This document shows, piece after piece, positions 23,388-33,704 of a stretch of DNA of 42,183 nt. This stretch comes from Fidelibacterota bacterium. Its GTDB lineage: Bacteria > Fidelibacterota > Marinisomatia > Marinisomatales > JABMOV01. The notes under the pieces were generated by a model. The model saw nothing but the letters and a program-made list of their open reading frames with translations. It searched no databases and had not been told where the DNA came from. Made by a program: the position numbers and the translations under genes. The DNA is taken from NCBI GenBank assembly GCA_046861395.1, contig JBHHUC010000013.1:1-42183 (forward strand), given 5' to 3'. Each line of letters begins with the position of its first letter. The first letter of the stretch is position 1.

Positions 23388-26300
23388 TTATTCCGGGGTC
23401 AGGATTTTTACCAGACCACCGAATTGCTTATTGATTGTAAATCCGTGCTTATAAAATAATCCGGCCTGGAAGAAACCAACCGTAACGTATTGATAATTCA
23501 GATGGGTCAGACGTTGGAAAAATTCATTCAGAAGTCTGGCACTGAGACCCCGTTTCTGAAATTCCCGACGAATGACAATTCGTTCTAAGTAAGCGGTAGA
23601 ATTTCCAATATCTTTCCAGTAAATTCCTCCAATGACGTGGTTTTGTGCATCCAGCATGAGCAGGAATTGGTGATCCTGATGAAAGGGAGCCGCCATATTG
23701 GCCTGACTCAGAATGGCATAAAACCCGGCAATTTCCCGGGGATGAAAGGCTGATCGGATACGGTAGTATTCGCCCGTATCATCGGTGATGGTCGTGATGA
23801 GGTCCAGACGGCCCTGCTGACCGAAATCCCATGAAACCAGTTTGCCGAAGTCCTGAGCTTGAATATGTTCAAACAATAACCGGGTCAGGAAATACTCATC
23901 TTCATCATTAATGTCCATCTTTTCCAAAATCATGCGAATATTCTGATCCATCTCCTGCAGAGAAATGGCCCGGGCGCGGACATCCTTCTGGAGGTGAGTA
24001 AGAATATCTCTAAACTCCGGTGGGCTGTCCTTGAAACAGGTCATGAGAAAGAAGCGAATCCGTGTTTCAGGATAATGTTCCAGGAGATCGCGCAGTTGAT
24101 AATCTTTATATAATTCCAGCAGAATACTGCCCCGGGCTTCCTTGGTGGCTTTAGGATTTAATTCCAGCCAGCGGTTGTACCGCAAGGCGGCAAAGGTCAC
24201 TTGTTTGGTTAATACGCCGTAGGAAACTATTTCCGTAATGAAATCATCGATGCGTTGGGGCGTAAGATCATAGGCGGTACATTTTTCCTGCAAGTCCGGC
24301 TGGCGGATATCACGCTGCAACTGCCGTAATAGTTCCAATCCATTTTTAACGGATACGACCTGAATCAGGGCTGTGAACAGAATTTCCCAGTCCGCCATCC
24401 GTTGTAAACCACGATACTGGGCTTCCGTTTTGAGAATGAAATTTTCCCATAATGAAAACAACAAGGGAGCAAAATTATTATTCTGTACTCGATTCGATAT
24501 GGAAATCAAGCGGGTTCCGCTAGTATAATCATATTCCGGGATAATCAAATTGGCAGGTGAGGGGTCGGCAATGATATAGGAATAATTGGTCCGATACCAG
24601 AAATCAAAATAGGCCATGCAACCGTTCCAGATAAAATGTAACCAACGCATTTGCCAGCGATCCACTCGCTTCCCGCCGTTAATTTCCTGTCGGTTGCGCT
24701 CCAGGTACTGGGAAAGCGTTTCGCCGGGAATATATTCTTCCGTATAACATTGATGTTCCGGCCAGTAACCACCAAAATCCTCAACCAGTTTCCGGCCTCC
24801 TTCCCGGGATGACATGACGATTAACCACTGGATTTCTTCCTCCAGGAATTCCTTAGGCAGGGACTGATTATAATTGATGACCAGATTAAAGGATTCATGA
24901 TATCGGGTCTGGACCAACACCCGGTAAACCAGCTTGCCATGGGCTTCTCCCAGTTTGGAAACCCAGATTCCCTTCAAGGGGATATCATTCAGCTGGATCA
25001 GCTTATTATGGGCAAAAATGAATATGGATTCACGCAATAAACTGGTTTCCGATAAGCCTTTGGTCAGGTGGGGACGCATGGCTTCCGAAACATTATCATC
25101 GAATTCAATGACATCCTGCCAACCGTATTCCTGATCAGTCTCAGGATCGATGGTGACCTGAACTGTCGCTCCCAGCCATAGACGGAAGGCTTGGATCATT
25201 GATTGCAACTGTTCCTCAGCCAATCGGGCAGTAGCAGGATCTGGACAGAAACGACGCCACCAGTTCAACTCTCTCCGCCCTTCCAGATAGGTCGACGGAT
25301 GATGAGAGCAATAAGCAGCAACAATTCCCAGTAATACGGCAATACAATGGTAATCACCGGAAGATAGTGATGCGAGGGAATGTTTCTGGTTCTGCAAATG
25401 ATGCATGACAGCTTTGAAATGCCCTTTATGAAAACGGGATATATCCAGATCCGCATTATCCGATGCCCCATGCTTCTGGGCAAAAGCCAGCACAGGAAGT
25501 AACAGGGTAATAAATTCTTCCCCGCTTAAATAGGGGAGCAAACTGTTCAGGGCCTGAAACTGAATCTCGTCGTCAGGATAGTGGCACAAGCGTTTTATTA
25601 TCCGCAGGATAATTTCTTTGAATTCTTCAGATTGCGCCAAGACAAAATCAAGATGACTCAAGGCCTGTATCACAATGGAACGGTCTTGATGATGGAACAT
25701 CATAGCTGCCTGGTGAACCGATGACAAGGTGACGGATTTTTCCTGTACAAACCGAATGAAATCCTTCGTGGTTTTCGGATGAAATAGATCGGGAAAAAGT
25801 GCCTTTTCATCCAATTCTAAATGGCAATCTGGTTTATCCTTGTTTTTCCGAAAGGCCACATTTCCGGTGAAAAGAATCAGGTCTTCATTGCCCAGCCAGA
25901 GATCGGGTCGTTTGAGGAAAGCATCCAAATCAATAACCGGATAATTCAATTGATAAAGAAAAGAACCTACCGTGGCGGACGTTTTCTGGTAAGTCAGTTT
26001 CAGGCTTTTATCATCCTTATTCAGATGAAGACATTCACCATCCCAGCGAATATCGCTGCGAGTCACACCCCATTCCCGCATCAGCCAGTTTGGAATCCGG
26101 ATTTCGTATTCCTGGAAGAAGCAGGAGATATAATTCCGTTGGTACATGGGGCTTATATATTCGGTAAAATGCTGCAGAACTGTCTTGCGTTTGAATGTCT
26201 TTTTGGGAGTGAGTTCCCCTTTTTCGCGTGAAAAATCTCTGGGAATAACACTGTACTGAACGATTCGCTCATAGGGTGCCAGAAATGTATTCACCGATTG

Positions 26301-27959
26301 AACAATAGGTGTGAACCATTTCTGGAGATCAGTTTTTTGTTCTTCGGGAATGTTTTTCATATCGGGATAAATCAATAACGTGTTGTATTCCTGTCCGTCG
26401 CCAACTAGAAAAACGGATTTTACCGAATCGAAATCCAGAAACATGTTTTCAATTTTTTGCGGTGATATGGTCTGACCCCGGCTGTTTTTATATATTTCCT
26501 TTTTACGGTCGATGATGAAATAATGCCCTCTCTTAATACGGAAAATATCTCCGGTATAGAACCAACCATCCTTGAAAACACCTTGGGGTGATTCAGGATA
26601 ATAACCGGAGGTGACGTAACATCCCCGTAGGAGCAATTCGCCGTCGTCATTTAATCGTGTTTCAATTCCCGGGAGCGGTTTACCCACGGATTCATTCACA
26701 TAGTCCCCCGGTGGCGTCATGAGGATTCCTCCTGTGGCTTCGGTCATTCCATACCCACTGAGTAGTTGAATCCCCTGAGACTGAAAATACTGAAAGATTC
26801 CGGGATCCAGATGTCCCGCTGCGCTGAGTCCCCATTTCAGCTGTCCTCCCGTTAAGCGTTTGATGGTTTTCCGGGCCGGGACGCCATTTCCCGAAACCAG
26901 GGAATCCTGTACATAATCATACAATTGAATCCACCGTTTTGGAATACTGATGAATACAGTGGGTTTCACCAGCCGGAAATCCTTCAGCAGGGATTGAAAC
27001 CCCGGTGATTCGGCAAAAGTATAGGTTGACCCCAGGTAAAGGCTTCCCATCATTTCGAGAAAACGACCAAAGGTGTGGTAGAGAGGAAGGTAGGCTAAAA
27101 AAGTATCGCGGGATGATATTTCCGGTAATGCCAAGGGGCGGAAAAATCGTTTACTCATAATATTTGTTTGACTGAAAATAATGCCTTTGGGATCGGCCGT
27201 GGTGCCTGAGGTATACATGATGGAGGCAATGCCATTCATATCCAATCGGGAATGTGACGGCTCAGGAGCTGTTTTTCCGTTGGCAAGAAAGGTTTCCCAG
27301 GACGTGGCTTCAAACATTTCAGATTTCGCGCCGGGAAACAGAATGACCTGAGGCAATGAAATACTTTTACTGATCTGTTCCACCAGTGTTATTTGTTCGG
27401 TACCGCCCAGGAATAAATGAGTAATACCGGCATGATGAAGAATGTATTGAAAATGTTCCTGTGAGAGAGTGGTGGGAATAGGAATGACACGAAATGCGAA
27501 GGACAGACACGCCAGATCAACCAAGGCACCGTAGCGGCTATTCGGTGTGAAAATGCCTATGACCGGGTTGACATGATTGCCGATACTTCCGGCAATCTGC
27601 TTGGTGAGTGACCAGGCCTGAGTATACGTCATCTTTTGGATTGTTTGGCCTGTGATCCATTGAAATAATGGCTTATTGGCGTATCGTTGTGCCCGCTGTC
27701 GATAACATATACCCAGATGATATTCAGAGGCAATAAGCAGGTGAGTGATTAAGTCCACCCACTGTTTTTGGTACGGTGAATTATGAAAAACACGATTCAC
27801 CGAACGGAAATGGGCGAGTTCAAGAAAGGCCCGTACTATATCAGGTGAACCGGTTGGTAATTCCTGTCCCAGAGAAAGTAATTCACTGGCCGGTACAATG
27901 TCATCGGTTGCCAGCGTTTGCGCCAGGGAGGTAATGCGTTCGATTATCCTGGATTCCAT
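23388..27959 (-). CDS. Large fusion protein: long-chain acyl-CoA synthetase-like AMP-binding domain, helical region, degenerate protein-kinase-like fold, C-terminal GNAT domain
   Basis: YTSGTTADPKG, YLPLYH, GYGMTE, WFYTGD, IIDRKKE in the N-terminal 600 aa; AYLERIVIRREFQKRGLSARLL...LFYKHGF (GNAT motifs A/B) at the C-terminus. The kinase-like call is inference. Confidence 0.8.
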   Translation of the reverse strand: MESRIIERITSLAQTLATDDIVPASELLSLGQELPTGSPDIVRAFLELAHFRSVNRVFHNSPYQKQWVDLITHLLIASEYHLGICYRQRAQRYANKPLFQWITGQTIQKMTYTQAWSLTKQIAGSIGNHVNPVIGIFTPNSRYGALVDLACLSFAFRVIPIPTTLSQEHFQYILHHAGITHLFLGGTEQITLVEQISKSISLPQVILFPGAKSEMFEATSWETFLANGKTAPEPSHSRLDMNGIASIMYTSGTTADPKGIIFSQTNIMSKRFFRPLALPEISSRDTFLAYLPLYHTFGRFLEMMGSLYLGSTYTFAESPGFQSLLKDFRLVKPTVFISIPKRWIQLYDYVQDSLVSGNGVPARKTIKRLTGGQLKWGLSAAGHLDPGIFQYFQSQGIQLLSGYGMTEATGGILMTPPGDYVNESVGKPLPGIETRLNDDGELLLRGCYVTSGYYPESPQGVFKDGWFYTGDIFRIKRGHYFIIDRKKEIYKNSRGQTISPQKIENMFLDFDSVKSVFLVGDGQEYNTLLIYPDMKNIPEEQKTDLQKWFTPIVQSVNTFLAPYERIVQYSVIPRDFSREKGELTPKKTFKRKTVLQHFTEYISPMYQRNYISCFFQEYEIRIPNWLMREWGVTRSDIRWDGECLHLNKDDKSLKLTYQKTSATVGSFLYQLNYPVIDLDAFLKRPDLWLGNEDLILFTGNVAFRKNKDKPDCHLELDEKALFPDLFHPKTTKDFIRFVQEKSVTLSSVHQAAMMFHHQDRSIVIQALSHLDFVLAQSEEFKEIILRIIKRLCHYPDDEIQFQALNSLLPYLSGEEFITLLLPVLAFAQKHGASDNADLDISRFHKGHFKAVMHHLQNQKHSLASLSSGDYHCIAVLLGIVAAYCSHHPSTYLEGRRELNWWRRFCPDPATARLAEEQLQSMIQAFRLWLGATVQVTIDPETDQEYGWQDVIEFDDNVSEAMRPHLTKGLSETSLLRESIFIFAHNKLIQLNDIPLKGIWVSKLGEAHGKLVYRVLVQTRYHESFNLVINYNQSLPKEFLEEEIQWLIVMSSREGGRKLVEDFGGYWPEHQCYTEEYIPGETLSQYLERNRQEINGGKRVDRWQMRWLHFIWNGCMAYFDFWYRTNYSYIIADPSPANLIIPEYDYTSGTRLISISNRVQNNNFAPLLFSLWENFILKTEAQYRGLQRMADWEILFTALIQVVSVKNGLELLRQLQRDIRQPDLQEKCTAYDLTPQRIDDFITEIVSYGVLTKQVTFAALRYNRWLELNPKATKEARGSILLELYKDYQLRDLLEHYPETRIRFFLMTCFKDSPPEFRDILTHLQKDVRARAISLQEMDQNIRMILEKMDINDEDEYFLTRLLFEHIQAQDFGKLVSWDFGQQGRLDLITTITDDTGEYYRIRSAFHPREIAGFYAILSQANMAAPFHQDHQFLLMLDAQNHVIGGIYWKDIGNSTAYLERIVIRREFQKRGLSARLLNEFFQRLTHLNYQYVTVGFFQAGLFYKHGFTINKQFGGLVKILTPE

Positions 27960-31700: not shown

Positions 31701-32342
31701 ATGAATGAATTAACAAAATCCGAAATTGTCGAGCAGAAAAACGGATACAATTCTTCCCAGGAACAGGAAATCATAGAACAAGCGCAGCGCGGTGATTCCA
31801 GCGCCTTTGCCAAACTGGTGAAAATGTATTCCGGAAGGATATACAGCTTGGCTATCCGCATCATGCGAAATGAAGAAGATGCGGAGGATGTACTACAGGA
31901 AACATTTCTTATCATGATGAGGAAAATAAATCAATATTCCGGTCGTTCATCATTTTATACCTGGCTGTATCGCGTGTCCACCAATGTTGCTCTGGGGAAA
32001 ATAAGAGAGAAGAAACGAAGTGAAAAAAATGTTTCCATCGATGAACCCGATTTTACCGTTATCCGGGGATCACAGTTAAGTGAATGGCCTGATCATCTGG
32101 AACAGAAGCTGGAGGATGGTGCCTTCCGTGAATGTCTGACCAAGGCCGTGGATGCATTACCGGCCAATTATCGCACAGTATTCGTATTGCGGGATTTAGA
32201 AAATCTATCCACCAAGGAGACCAGTGAAATTTTGAAAATAAGTGAAGCAAATGTAAAGGTGAGGCTCATGCGAGCACGGCTGTTTCTGCGGGACCAGCTG
32301 GCACGTCATCTGAAATGTATGGAGGGAACAGATTATGAATAA
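31701..32342 (+). CDS. ECF-family RNA polymerase sigma factor
   Basis: Region 2 DAEDVLQETF...SSFYTWLYRVSTN; region 4 LPANYRTVFVLRD...VKVRLMRAR. Confidence 0.94.
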   Translation: MNELTKSEIVEQKNGYNSSQEQEIIEQAQRGDSSAFAKLVKMYSGRIYSLAIRIMRNEEDAEDVLQETFLIMMRKINQYSGRSSFYTWLYRVSTNVALGKIREKKRSEKNVSIDEPDFTVIRGSQLSEWPDHLEQKLEDGAFRECLTKAVDALPANYRTVFVLRDLENLSTKETSEILKISEANVKVRLMRARLFLRDQLARHLKCMEGTDYE

Positions 32343-32571
32343 CCACAAGAAAAATCTGCTGAAATTGCTGGAGCAGCAGTTGGGCCAGGATATTGATGCT
32401 GATTTGTTCCGAGAAGTGGCTCAGCATATGGAAGAATGTCCCGACTGTAAAATTTACGTGGATAGTGTAAAACAGACCATAAACCTGTACCGAAGTACCG
32501 AGAATGAACAAGCCATTCCCGATGACGTATCGGATCGGTTGTATAAAACATTGCAGTTAACAACGAAGTAA
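32335..32571 (+). CDS. Soluble zinc-binding anti-sigma factor (zf-HC2/ZAS)
   Basis: HMEECPDC (HxxxCxxC), overlaps the sigma stop, no TM helix. Confidence 0.85.
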   Translation: MNNHKKNLLKLLEQQLGQDIDADLFREVAQHMEECPDCKIYVDSVKQTINLYRSTENEQAIPDDVSDRLYKTLQLTTK

Positions 32572-32572
32572 A

Positions 32573-32779
32573 ATGATTGACAGCGATATCTATATAGAGG
32601 ATTTGGTCCGAGATTATCCCATAGTAGTCAAGCCCCTGGCGGACATGGGACTGGTATGTGTCTATTGCGGGGAGCCAGTCTGGGGAACCTTGGGTGAACT
32701 TATAGCCAGTAAAGGTGTAACCAAACAGGAAAGGATCATCCAAAAACTCAATGAAATTACACAATCCAATAAACCGTAA
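32573..32779 (+). CDS. DUF1858-like small protein with CxxC
   Basis: IEDLVRDYP...LADMGLVCVYCG...TLGELI pattern; 1-nt gap to the upstream gene. Confidence 0.7.
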   Translation: MIDSDIYIEDLVRDYPIVVKPLADMGLVCVYCGEPVWGTLGELIASKGVTKQERIIQKLNEITQSNKP

Positions 32780-32954
32780 CCGGCTGAAACCGTTCATCGG
32801 AATAACCGGCGGAGCTTTGGCAGGGTTTGCCTATTATTATTTCATCGGTTGTAAAACCGGCACCTGTGCCATCACCGGGCATCCTCTCAATGCAACGGTC
32901 TTTGGCAGTATCATCGGTATTCTTTGGACATTACCAGAAAAAGGGAAAAATTAA
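32751..32954 (+). CDS. DUF6132-like small membrane protein
   Basis: GGALAGFAYYYFIGCKTGTCAITGHP: two short TM segments around a CxxGxC loop. Confidence 0.75.
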   Translation: MKLHNPINRNRLKPFIGITGGALAGFAYYYFIGCKTGTCAITGHPLNATVFGSIIGILWTLPEKGKN

Positions 32955-32955
32955 T

Positions 32956-33342
32956 ATGAATTATGGTTATAAACGGGTTGTCACAAAATCCTTTGATGAA
33001 GTAAATCAAAAAATTCGTAACACATTACAGGAAAAGGGCTTCGGTGTCCTCACGGAAATCAATGTAAAGGATACGCTACGGAAAAAACTGGATGTGGATT
33101 TTAAAAAATACATTATTTTAGGTGCCTGTAATCCTCCAATTGCCCATCGGGCCCTGTCAGCAGACAACGGCGTCGGGCTATTATTGCCGTGTAATGTGGT
33201 ATTATGGGAAAATGAAGATGGCTCAACCACCGTGGCGGCCATCAATGCCCAAAAAATGCTGGCCATCACCGGTTTGGATGGACTGGATGAAATGGCCGGA
33301 AAAGTAAACGATTTGTTACGACAGGCAGTGGATGCCGTATGA
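32956..33342 (+). CDS. DUF302 domain protein
   Basis: GFGVLTEIN, YIILGACNP, GLLLPCNVV. True start ATG 32956 (MNYGYKR), 1 nt after the upstream stop; the 32827 extension in the track overlaps the previous gene. Confidence 0.88.
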   Translation: MNYGYKRVVTKSFDEVNQKIRNTLQEKGFGVLTEINVKDTLRKKLDVDFKKYIILGACNPPIAHRALSADNGVGLLLPCNVVLWENEDGSTTVAAINAQKMLAITGLDGLDEMAGKVNDLLRQAVDAV

Positions 33343-33488
33343 GTGACGTTGTTCAAATTGCTATCATTTCTACCATATGGTATATGCTCACCCGGTATGT
33401 TTTTCCAAAATTTGGAATCGGGACTTGAGGCCATCTGCCCCATACTCAGGCTGAGTCAGAAGAATTGAACGATAAACCGGAGCAATAA
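33339..33488 (+). CDS. Small single-TM protein, putative selenoprotein (29 aa if TGA is a stop; 49 aa if read through)
   Basis: Not in the ORF track. ATG overlaps the DUF302 stop (ATGA). Translation MSDVVQIAIISTIWYMLTRYVFPKFGIGT-(TGA 33426-33428)-GHLPHTQAESEELNDKPEQ-TAA, ending 3 nt before the next ATG. Confidence 0.7.
33434..33460 (+). promoter_or_regulatory. Candidate bacterial SECIS element 1
   Basis: Upper stem ACTCA/TGAGT (33444-33456) with loop GGC starting 21 nt after the UGA; possible lower stem TCTG/CAGA. Confidence 0.5.
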
Positions 33489-33491
33489 ATC

Positions 33492-33704
33492 ATGCCCATT
33501 TATGATTATCATTGTAAAAATTGTGATACCGATTTTGAAGAACTGGTCTTTTCCAGTTTGGTTCCCGATGAAGAAATTACTTGTCCCCAATGTAACAAGA
33601 ATGAAGCACAGCGCCAATTGAGCGCCCCGATGATTAGTACAGGTTCAACCGGAAGCTCCGATAGCCATTCCGGCGGATGCAACGCACCGTCAGGATTTTC
33701 CTGA
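33492..33704 (+). CDS. FmdB-family zinc-ribbon protein (possibly extended by Sec-Ala-Asn to 33713)
   Basis: MPIYDYHCKNC...FEEL...CPQC...RQLS, Ser/Gly-rich tail GGCNAPSGFS, then TGA GCC AAC TAA. Confidence 0.88.
   Translation: MPIYDYHCKNCDTDFEELVFSSLVPDEEITCPQCNKNEAQRQLSAPMISTGSTGSSDSHSGGCNAPSGFS

Follow-up and report, generated by a model that had tools for sequence, protein, structure and literature searches.

The closest known counterpart of the microprotein analyzed here is a hypothetical selenoprotein family from Geobacter lovleyi, which resembles it in having a tryptophan-bearing hydrophobic helix, an LP[KR]LG[IV]xT motif running into selenocysteine (Sec, U) and a short charged tail. 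Table S3 of Peng 2016, in the accessible part of that source (PMC5029168), contains an entry "Unknown (Geobacter lovleyi)" with 5 organisms and no sequence; the entry is assigned here by its label alone to the family of the published G. lovleyi sequences and is presumably the same. We found no text, alignment, gene neighborhood or function for this family in the literature, and it may be described in bioRxiv supplements, BSepDB (PMC13326102) or dbTEU. The accessible portion of a 2026 review (PMC13188914) has no matching row in its 119-family table, and the family is mentioned neither in the accessible portion of Zhang and Gladyshev 2008 (PMC2398784) nor in that of the Haft and Gwadz preprint (10.1101/2022.07.06.499078). 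The same portion of the 2026 review gives a model of the bacterial SECIS element (bSECIS), with a loop of 3 to 9 nt, a stem of 4 to 16 bp, a G in the first two loop positions, a distance of 16 to 37 nt from the UGA and a free energy of ≤−7.5 kcal/mol (PMC13188914).

The stretch of DNA studied here (the window) comprises 42,183 nt of a Fidelibacterota bacterium (assembly GCA_046861395.1, contig JBHHUC010000013.1). Using comparative genomics, which supports the predicted gene, its Sec/Cys pair, the SECIS hairpin, the decoding machinery and the neighbors, we conclude with a probability of about 95% that a locus in this window encodes a selenoprotein, with its UGA read as Sec.

A short gene with an in-frame TGA in a tightly packed operon

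As summarized in Table 1, the microprotein gene is the sixth of a tightly packed series in the order ECF sigma factor, zinc anti-sigma factor, DUF1858-like protein, DUF6132 protein, DUF302 protein, microprotein and FmdB protein, and this order is largely kept in relatives, where the counterparts of the weakly matching anti-sigma factor exceed the zf-HC2 cutoff. An earlier note on this DNA had proposed a 49-residue selenoprotein here, and its reading of the letters was confirmed throughout: the start codon at 33339 (ATG) shares letters with the DUF302 stop codon (ATGA, 33339 to 33342); 29 codons closing with RYVFPKFGIGT are followed by TGA (33426 to 33428) and by 19 open codons up to a TAA (33486 to 33488); the FmdB gene starts with ATG at 33492, 3 nt past the TAA, and the gap would be 63 nt with TGA as the stop; and the hairpin ACTCA-GGC-TGAGT occupies 33444 to 33456, with its loop G 20 nt beyond the UGA.

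Table 1. Predicted features of the microprotein gene and its operon in the window
Feature	Position	Strand	Basis
ECF sigma factor gene, operon head	31701..32342	+	TIGR02937 above cutoff
Soluble zinc-finger (RsrA-like) anti-sigma factor gene	32335..32571	+	Weak: TIGR03988 E 9e-5, zf-HC2 E 0.029
DUF1858-like small CxxC protein gene	32573..32779	+	Weak, below cutoff: TIGR03980 E 5e-5, PF08984 E 0.026
DUF6132 small membrane protein gene, CxxGxC motif	32751..32954	+	PF19628 at cutoff
DUF302 gene, ATGA-coupled to microprotein	32956..33342	+	PF03625 E 2.5e-24
49-aa single-pass membrane selenoprotein gene (predicted)	33339..33488	+	29 aa, Sec30, 19-aa acidic tail, TAA; homologs
Predicted membrane helix, residues 2-24, then P-[KR]-x-G-[VI]-x-T turn	33342..33410	+	AlphaFold pLDDT about 90
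In-frame TGA, predicted selenocysteine codon	33426..33428	+	119/120 listed GTDB matches TGA, 1 TGC; Cys in 28/149 protein matches
Bacterial SECIS hairpin (predicted), 5-bp stem, GGC loop	33444..33456	+	Covariation in 14 homologs; this copy weak
True stop TAA, 3 nt ahead of FmdB start	33486..33488	+	Read-through stop position, 34/39 loci
FmdB-family zinc-ribbon protein gene, directly downstream	33492..33704	+	TIGR02605 above cutoff; PF09723

The DUF1858-like (32573 to 32779) and FmdB (33492 to 33704) neighbors are both Cys forms in the window; according to the accessible part of the 2026 review, both families include selenoproteins in other organisms (PMC13188914), and other copies of the operon may hold more than one Sec gene. 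The DUF6132 gene directly precedes the microprotein gene at some loci, and a MATE exporter gene comes after the operon in the window. No paralog of the microprotein gene was found in the host genome. A promoter and terminator scan of the window performed at about chance level, and from the UGA to the next gene it gave no terminator-like site on the + strand. Elsewhere in the window (23388 to 27959, − strand), an open reading frame (ORF) of 1523 aa has, by inspection, an acyl-CoA synthetase-like start, an acetyltransferase-like end and a long middle.

Taken by itself, the locus stands at chance level. At least 12 open codons also trail 278 of 527 ordinary TGA stops in the host genome, and the hairpin of the window, compared with shuffled sequences, scored z = +0.7 to +0.85, which does not exceed chance. 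Since its own hairpin is at chance level and open frames after TGA are common, the single locus proves nothing, and the case therefore rests on the homologs.

Homologs carry TGA or cysteine at the position of the UGA

With the window protein as a single query, 17 of 41 genomes were matched, 16 of them genuinely; a chance match within a longer ORF (L026) was rejected. A 14-row profile returned 79 places in 73 of the 401 genomes of the phylum, and the in-frame TGA was conserved at 71 places in 69 of the 401, although these genomes are kin and the counts are not independent. The remaining 8 rows were weak partial matches, two of them with TAA, and were set aside, 7 being unrelated frames or different ORFs and 1 a decayed-looking copy. 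Inspection of 50 distinct sequences from the phylum (39 plus 10 plus the window) revealed TGA in all 50. None of these 50 has a Cys at position +5 after the Sec, and a Pro-rich stretch follows the U, the window residues being GHLPH. Measured from the start of the next gene, the stop reached by read-through falls at −14 to +5 nt in 34 of 39 homologous loci.

Two genomes (G356 and G224) have two TGA-bearing copies each. One locus (L273, on G198:C1, after DUF302) keeps the helix codons, has no in-frame start and is broken in frame before PKxG; it looks like a decayed or misassembled copy, in a single-contig genome with selA. Three genomes of one genus (L274, L275 and L276) have a conserved 23-codon hydrophobic ORF that ends with TAA, overlaps the end of another gene and is without the PKxG-T motif, and this looks like a separate microprotein.

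On a wider scale, GTDB was scanned with a DNA pattern in which codon 30 could be TAA, TAG, TAY or any TGN; position 24 had to hold a Lys/Arg-type codon, and Cys forms were thereby undersampled. The pattern yielded at least 120 loci, and those listed comprised 119 with TGA, 1 with TGC (L131) and none with TAA or TAG. The frame past the TGA was open for 12 to 140 codons (median, 24) among the loci listed, and 90 of the 120 listed have a Cys exactly at position +5 from the UGA, a placement that would have no explanation if the TGA ended the protein. About nine phyla were represented, the 80 named loci including members of Desulfobacterota, Nitrospirota, Planctomycetota, Acidobacteriota, Chloroflexota, KSB1, Armatimonadota, Spirochaetes and Proteobacteria. 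Cultured, non-pathogenic carriers include Geomobilimonas luticola, Pelotalea chapellei and Geobacter sp. OR-1. Cys orthologs were found at 65 distinct metagenome loci, with CxxxxC or CxxxxCC spacing. Among the genuine homologs in the phylum and the listed GTDB matches, the position of the UGA holds TGA or Cys and neither TAA nor TAG.

A profile search of 1.84 billion proteins returned 518 clusters at 50% identity. Among the best 150 of these, one (P0002) was a repeat artifact and was removed; of the 149 genuine matches, 115 have as their last residue the Thr that precedes the UGA, 28 proceed with Cys, 1 with Trp and 1 with Glu, and 4 are without the motif. The statement in the earlier note that similar proteins either finish with this motif or run on with Cys was borne out. 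Its expectation that gene callers miss the gene needs correction: the gene is often called, as a truncated 29-aa protein. The window protein returned nothing in a word-index search of proteins, whose sensitivity suffers with a query of this length, and the ESM Atlas gave as its sole match one unnamed cluster of 123 (score, 0.89). No NCBIfam model (searched with 1, 14, 25 and 72 sequences) and no Pfam model (1 and 25 sequences) matched at or near its cutoff.

A hairpin covaries downstream of the UGA and is lost in Cys forms

In 14 close homologs, a helix of six pairs follows the UGA, with 88% of cells paired and two-sided changes at 4 of the 6 pairs. Its covariation score was 0.368, versus 0.053 to 0.159 for slid controls, and 0 of 500 shuffles reached it, a shuffle test that the kinship of the 14 homologs inflates. 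We scored hairpins by a single fixed rule (stem of ≥4 pairs, G early in the loop, ≤−3 kcal/mol). The rule selected 111 of 119 UGA genes; among the controls, it selected 76 of 527 ordinary TGA stops in the host, 17 to 36 of the roughly 117 shifted positions and 662 of the 2380 codon shuffles. At 16 to 24 nt, a hairpin was present in 110 of 119 UGA genes versus 15 of 65 Cys genes, though the Cys loci are richer in G+C. These results indicated that compensatory changes preserve the hairpin among homologs and that its frequency in Cys forms drops to background level. By the same rule, 3 of 39 inspected relatives are without a hairpin, and several score near zero.

The copy in the window has the geometry of the published bSECIS model (5-bp stem, GGC loop, 20 nt), and its stem, at −2.4 kcal/mol, narrowly fails our rule; the fold gave −5.7, −6.6 or −8.3 kcal/mol depending on segment length, which is borderline against the −7.5 of the model. 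The host selD gene, which carries one in-frame TGA with a GGA-loop hairpin 17 nt beyond its UGA, offers a canonical comparison: in both genes the hairpin is in frame and, in the window as well, G stands first in a 3-nt loop, whereas the selD stem is stronger (−8.4 kcal/mol).

Selenocysteine machinery accompanies the gene

The host genome (94% complete) contains selA, selB, selC (tRNA-Sec) and selD. Its tRNA-Sec scored 67.5 bits against an Rfam cutoff of 47 and, read by eye, has a TTCAA anticodon loop. The selB gene is split by a contig end, the N-terminal part lying on contig C75 above cutoff and the C-terminal match at C58:540-932; selA adjoins the N-terminal selB part at the end of C75. Within the phylum, 66 of the 69 genomes that carry the microprotein gave a selA match, compared with 306 of 401 genomes overall, and of the 3 selA-negative carriers, two have tRNA-Sec and the third genome is 70% complete. 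Outside the phylum (50 of the 80 named loci tested), selA was detected in 48 of 49 TGA carriers, the exception having tRNA-Sec. In the lone TGC carrier, selA was not found, nor was tRNA-Sec among the 150 candidates scored out of 1244, and nothing exceeded the selB cutoff.

Sec machinery, the stop codon and the hairpin were the points on which the 49-aa selenoprotein proposal could have failed, and none of them spoke against it. The alternatives were weighed on the same evidence. The locus might encode a plain membrane peptide of 29 aa that ends at the TGA, the open frame and hairpin being incidental. TGA is a normal stop in this host, terminating 528 of 1330 long ORFs, 115 of the 149 best protein matches are called as ending at Thr, and the window hairpin is weak, all of which would suit such a peptide. 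We nevertheless regard it as very improbable, since no TAA or TAG occurs among the 120 listed matches across phyla, Cys lies five codons past the TGA in 90 of them and occupies the position of the UGA elsewhere, and the covarying hairpin is lost in Cys forms while selA co-occurs with the gene. Decoding of the TGA as Trp, Gly or Cys through a variant code or tRNA is equally improbable in our judgment: one protein match (P0066) has Trp at the UGA position, as calling with TGA as Trp would yield, but the regular use of TGA as a terminator in the host and its well-scoring tRNA-Sec with the TTCAA anticodon loop argue against this.

Anatomy of the protein and its gene neighborhoods

AlphaFold predicted one confident helix (residues 2 to 24) and a disordered tail. 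The 19-residue Kyte-Doolittle maximum of the window protein is moderate (1.43, versus a family mean of 2.3). In the family alignment, W14, P23, G26 and T29 are invariant, and the tail sequence is unconserved. Topology of membrane proteins follows the positive-inside rule, and the mean net charge across 118 sequences is −0.6 before the helix and +1.4 at its end. These helix-flanking charges suggest an N-out/C-in orientation, which would place the Sec on the inner membrane face.

Gene neighborhoods were compared at the 120 listed GTDB loci, 80 of which are long, with 2.5-kb flanks, and 40 short. The commonest neighbors, counted without a genome-wide background rate, were ArsR (22), FmdB (18), thioredoxin/TlpA (17), ECF (9), anti-sigma (7) and DUF302 (7). 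A chained cluster of rhodanese, metallo-β-lactamase (MBL)-fold dioxygenase, YgaP-like and CoA-disulfide reductase genes, with a few stray ORFs, was present at 16 of the 120, and MBL-fold dioxygenase-rhodanese and CoA-disulfide reductase-rhodanese genes also occur among the neighbors. At least one marker neighbor was found at 52 of the 80 long loci and none at 28, and no partner gene is universal. At the 65 Cys loci, neighbors were the rhodanese/YgaP cluster (36), anti-sigma (30) and thioredoxin (16). Deeper members of the phylum adjoin genes for type III sulfide:quinone oxidoreductase (SQR)-like, TusE/DsrC, DsrE2-like, OsmC and dioxygenase proteins. Upstream of one homolog, a type III SQR fragment (L185:3569-4036, − strand) adjoins TusE/DsrC and DsrE2-like genes; its best NCBIfam match is a selenoprotein subtype model, below cutoff on a partial gene.

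A proposed role at the membrane and its rivals

According to the accessible part of PMC9774590, sulfide is oxidized by way of SQR, rhodanese and persulfide dioxygenase, and certain members of the ArsR family act as persulfide sensors. The sulfur and redox neighbors (SQR, rhodanese, dioxygenase and ArsR) led us to read the microprotein, if it is a Sec protein, as a thiol-redox or sulfane-sulfur acceptor that is tethered to the membrane and belongs to a stress operon, a role that we consider more likely than not. The neighboring ArsR proteins scored 49 to 57 bits against the BigR model (cutoff, 155), and the regulator in the window is an ECF/anti-sigma pair.

The topology, chemistry and partners that we infer would combine as follows. 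The operon would be switched on by a cysteine-based sensor, the ECF sigma/zinc anti-sigma pair here and ArsR-type repressors elsewhere. With SelB attached to the hairpin 20 nt downstream, the UGA would be recoded as Sec, and the ribosome would continue to the TAA and then be handed to the FmdB gene. The product would be a single inner-membrane helix, probably N-out/C-in, and its selenol would sit at the cytoplasmic face, six residues beyond the point where the helix stops. Behind it would come a disordered, charged tail, the first codons of which serve as the SECIS as well. The Sec could attack polysulfide, persulfide or an oxidant, and in most phyla the Cys at +5 could resolve the Sec adduct. 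Because this Cys is absent in Fidelibacterota, an outside thiol would be needed there, possibly from the neighboring CxxC proteins, thioredoxin, a small thiol or a second copy.

The selenoprotein could instead bind soft metals or metalloids (Cu, Hg, As or Zn) through the Sec and the +5 Cys, handing ions to an exporter or buffering them at the membrane. ArsR/SmtB (22), zinc-ribbon (18) and, by inspection, RND-like efflux genes (6) at the 120 listed loci, the CxxxxC or CxxxxCC spacing of Cys forms and the MATE exporter that follows in the window fit such a protein. However, the rhodanese, dioxygenase, SQR-like, TusE and DsrE2-like neighbors point to sulfur, the commonest neighbor clusters include no metal ATPase, arsenate reductase or MerA cluster, and the Fidelibacterota form would offer only one Sec/Cys ligand, so that we consider metal binding unlikely. 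A mainly regulatory function, in which read-through couples the downstream gene (FmdB in the window, ECF sigma in Desulfobacterales) to selenium or the peptide serves as a membrane redox sensor acting on the soluble anti-sigma factor, would agree with the close spacing of read-through stop and next start at 34 of 39 loci, the unconserved tail, the placement of the gene directly before an ECF sigma gene at six loci and directly after ArsR at several others, and the anti-sigma neighbor at 30 of 65 Cys loci. We doubt this function too: Cys forms keep the helix, motif and neighbors yet cannot sense selenium through read-through, many loci have ArsR without an anti-sigma factor, and stop-start overlaps are normal in operons.

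The acceptor role could be extended to a membrane-anchored selenium carrier or sensor for sulfane sulfur, whose lone-U form relies solely on partners of its own operon for recycling and whose read-through gates the next gene, tying sulfur stress to selenium; we offer this as a speculation with the odds against it.

Significance and comparison with known systems

If the prediction is true, this selenoprotein ranks among the smallest and most widely distributed in bacteria, and it is missing from current catalogs. Protein databases truncate the family systematically, as the matches ending at the UGA illustrate (115 of the best 149), and a dedicated family model would correct these annotations. 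A one-helix peptide of about 50 residues that occurs in UxxxxC, lone-U and CxxxxC forms would also be a simple, synthesizable system for comparing selenium with sulfur at a membrane.

Eukaryotic SELENOK and SELENOS are likewise single-pass membrane selenoproteins, with the Sec cytosolic and in a disordered region. They differ in being much longer than the microprotein, in having the Sec near the C terminus and in their 3′-UTR SECIS, and the likeness is drawn without a claim of homology. DUF6132 (PF19628) proteins have, by inspection, a helix followed by CxxGxC, a spacing that appears to match the UxxxxC/CMSGAC forms of the family, but they differ in a second hydrophobic segment, and the microprotein family members tested match no Pfam model. 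YgaP-like/DUF2892 (PF11127) proteins are small membrane proteins with a Cys at the membrane face and occur in rhodanese operons; homology with them was rejected (HHalign probability of 0.7% with a 4-sequence alignment, and no Pfam match).

The nearest likeness is that to the G. lovleyi family. Compared by eye with the published sequences, the window protein shows the family pattern of a helix with W followed by P-[KR]-x-G-[VI]-x-T-U, and HHalign of GTDB look-alikes of these sequences against the clade of the window gave a probability of 99.3% (E = 1.5e-20). All six published sequences are UxxxxC, whereas the Fidelibacterota form is without the +5 Cys, which makes the window protein a variant of that family. 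The earlier proposal of a putative selenoprotein was therefore supported, but the family was not unpredicted, being already in supplementary data; its Sec prediction is not a first, nor is this a new kind of recoding. What is new here is the lone-Sec form, the SECIS control provided by Cys forms, the sulfur/redox context and a wider range than that on record, with published counts of 5 and 6 members versus at least 120 GTDB species.
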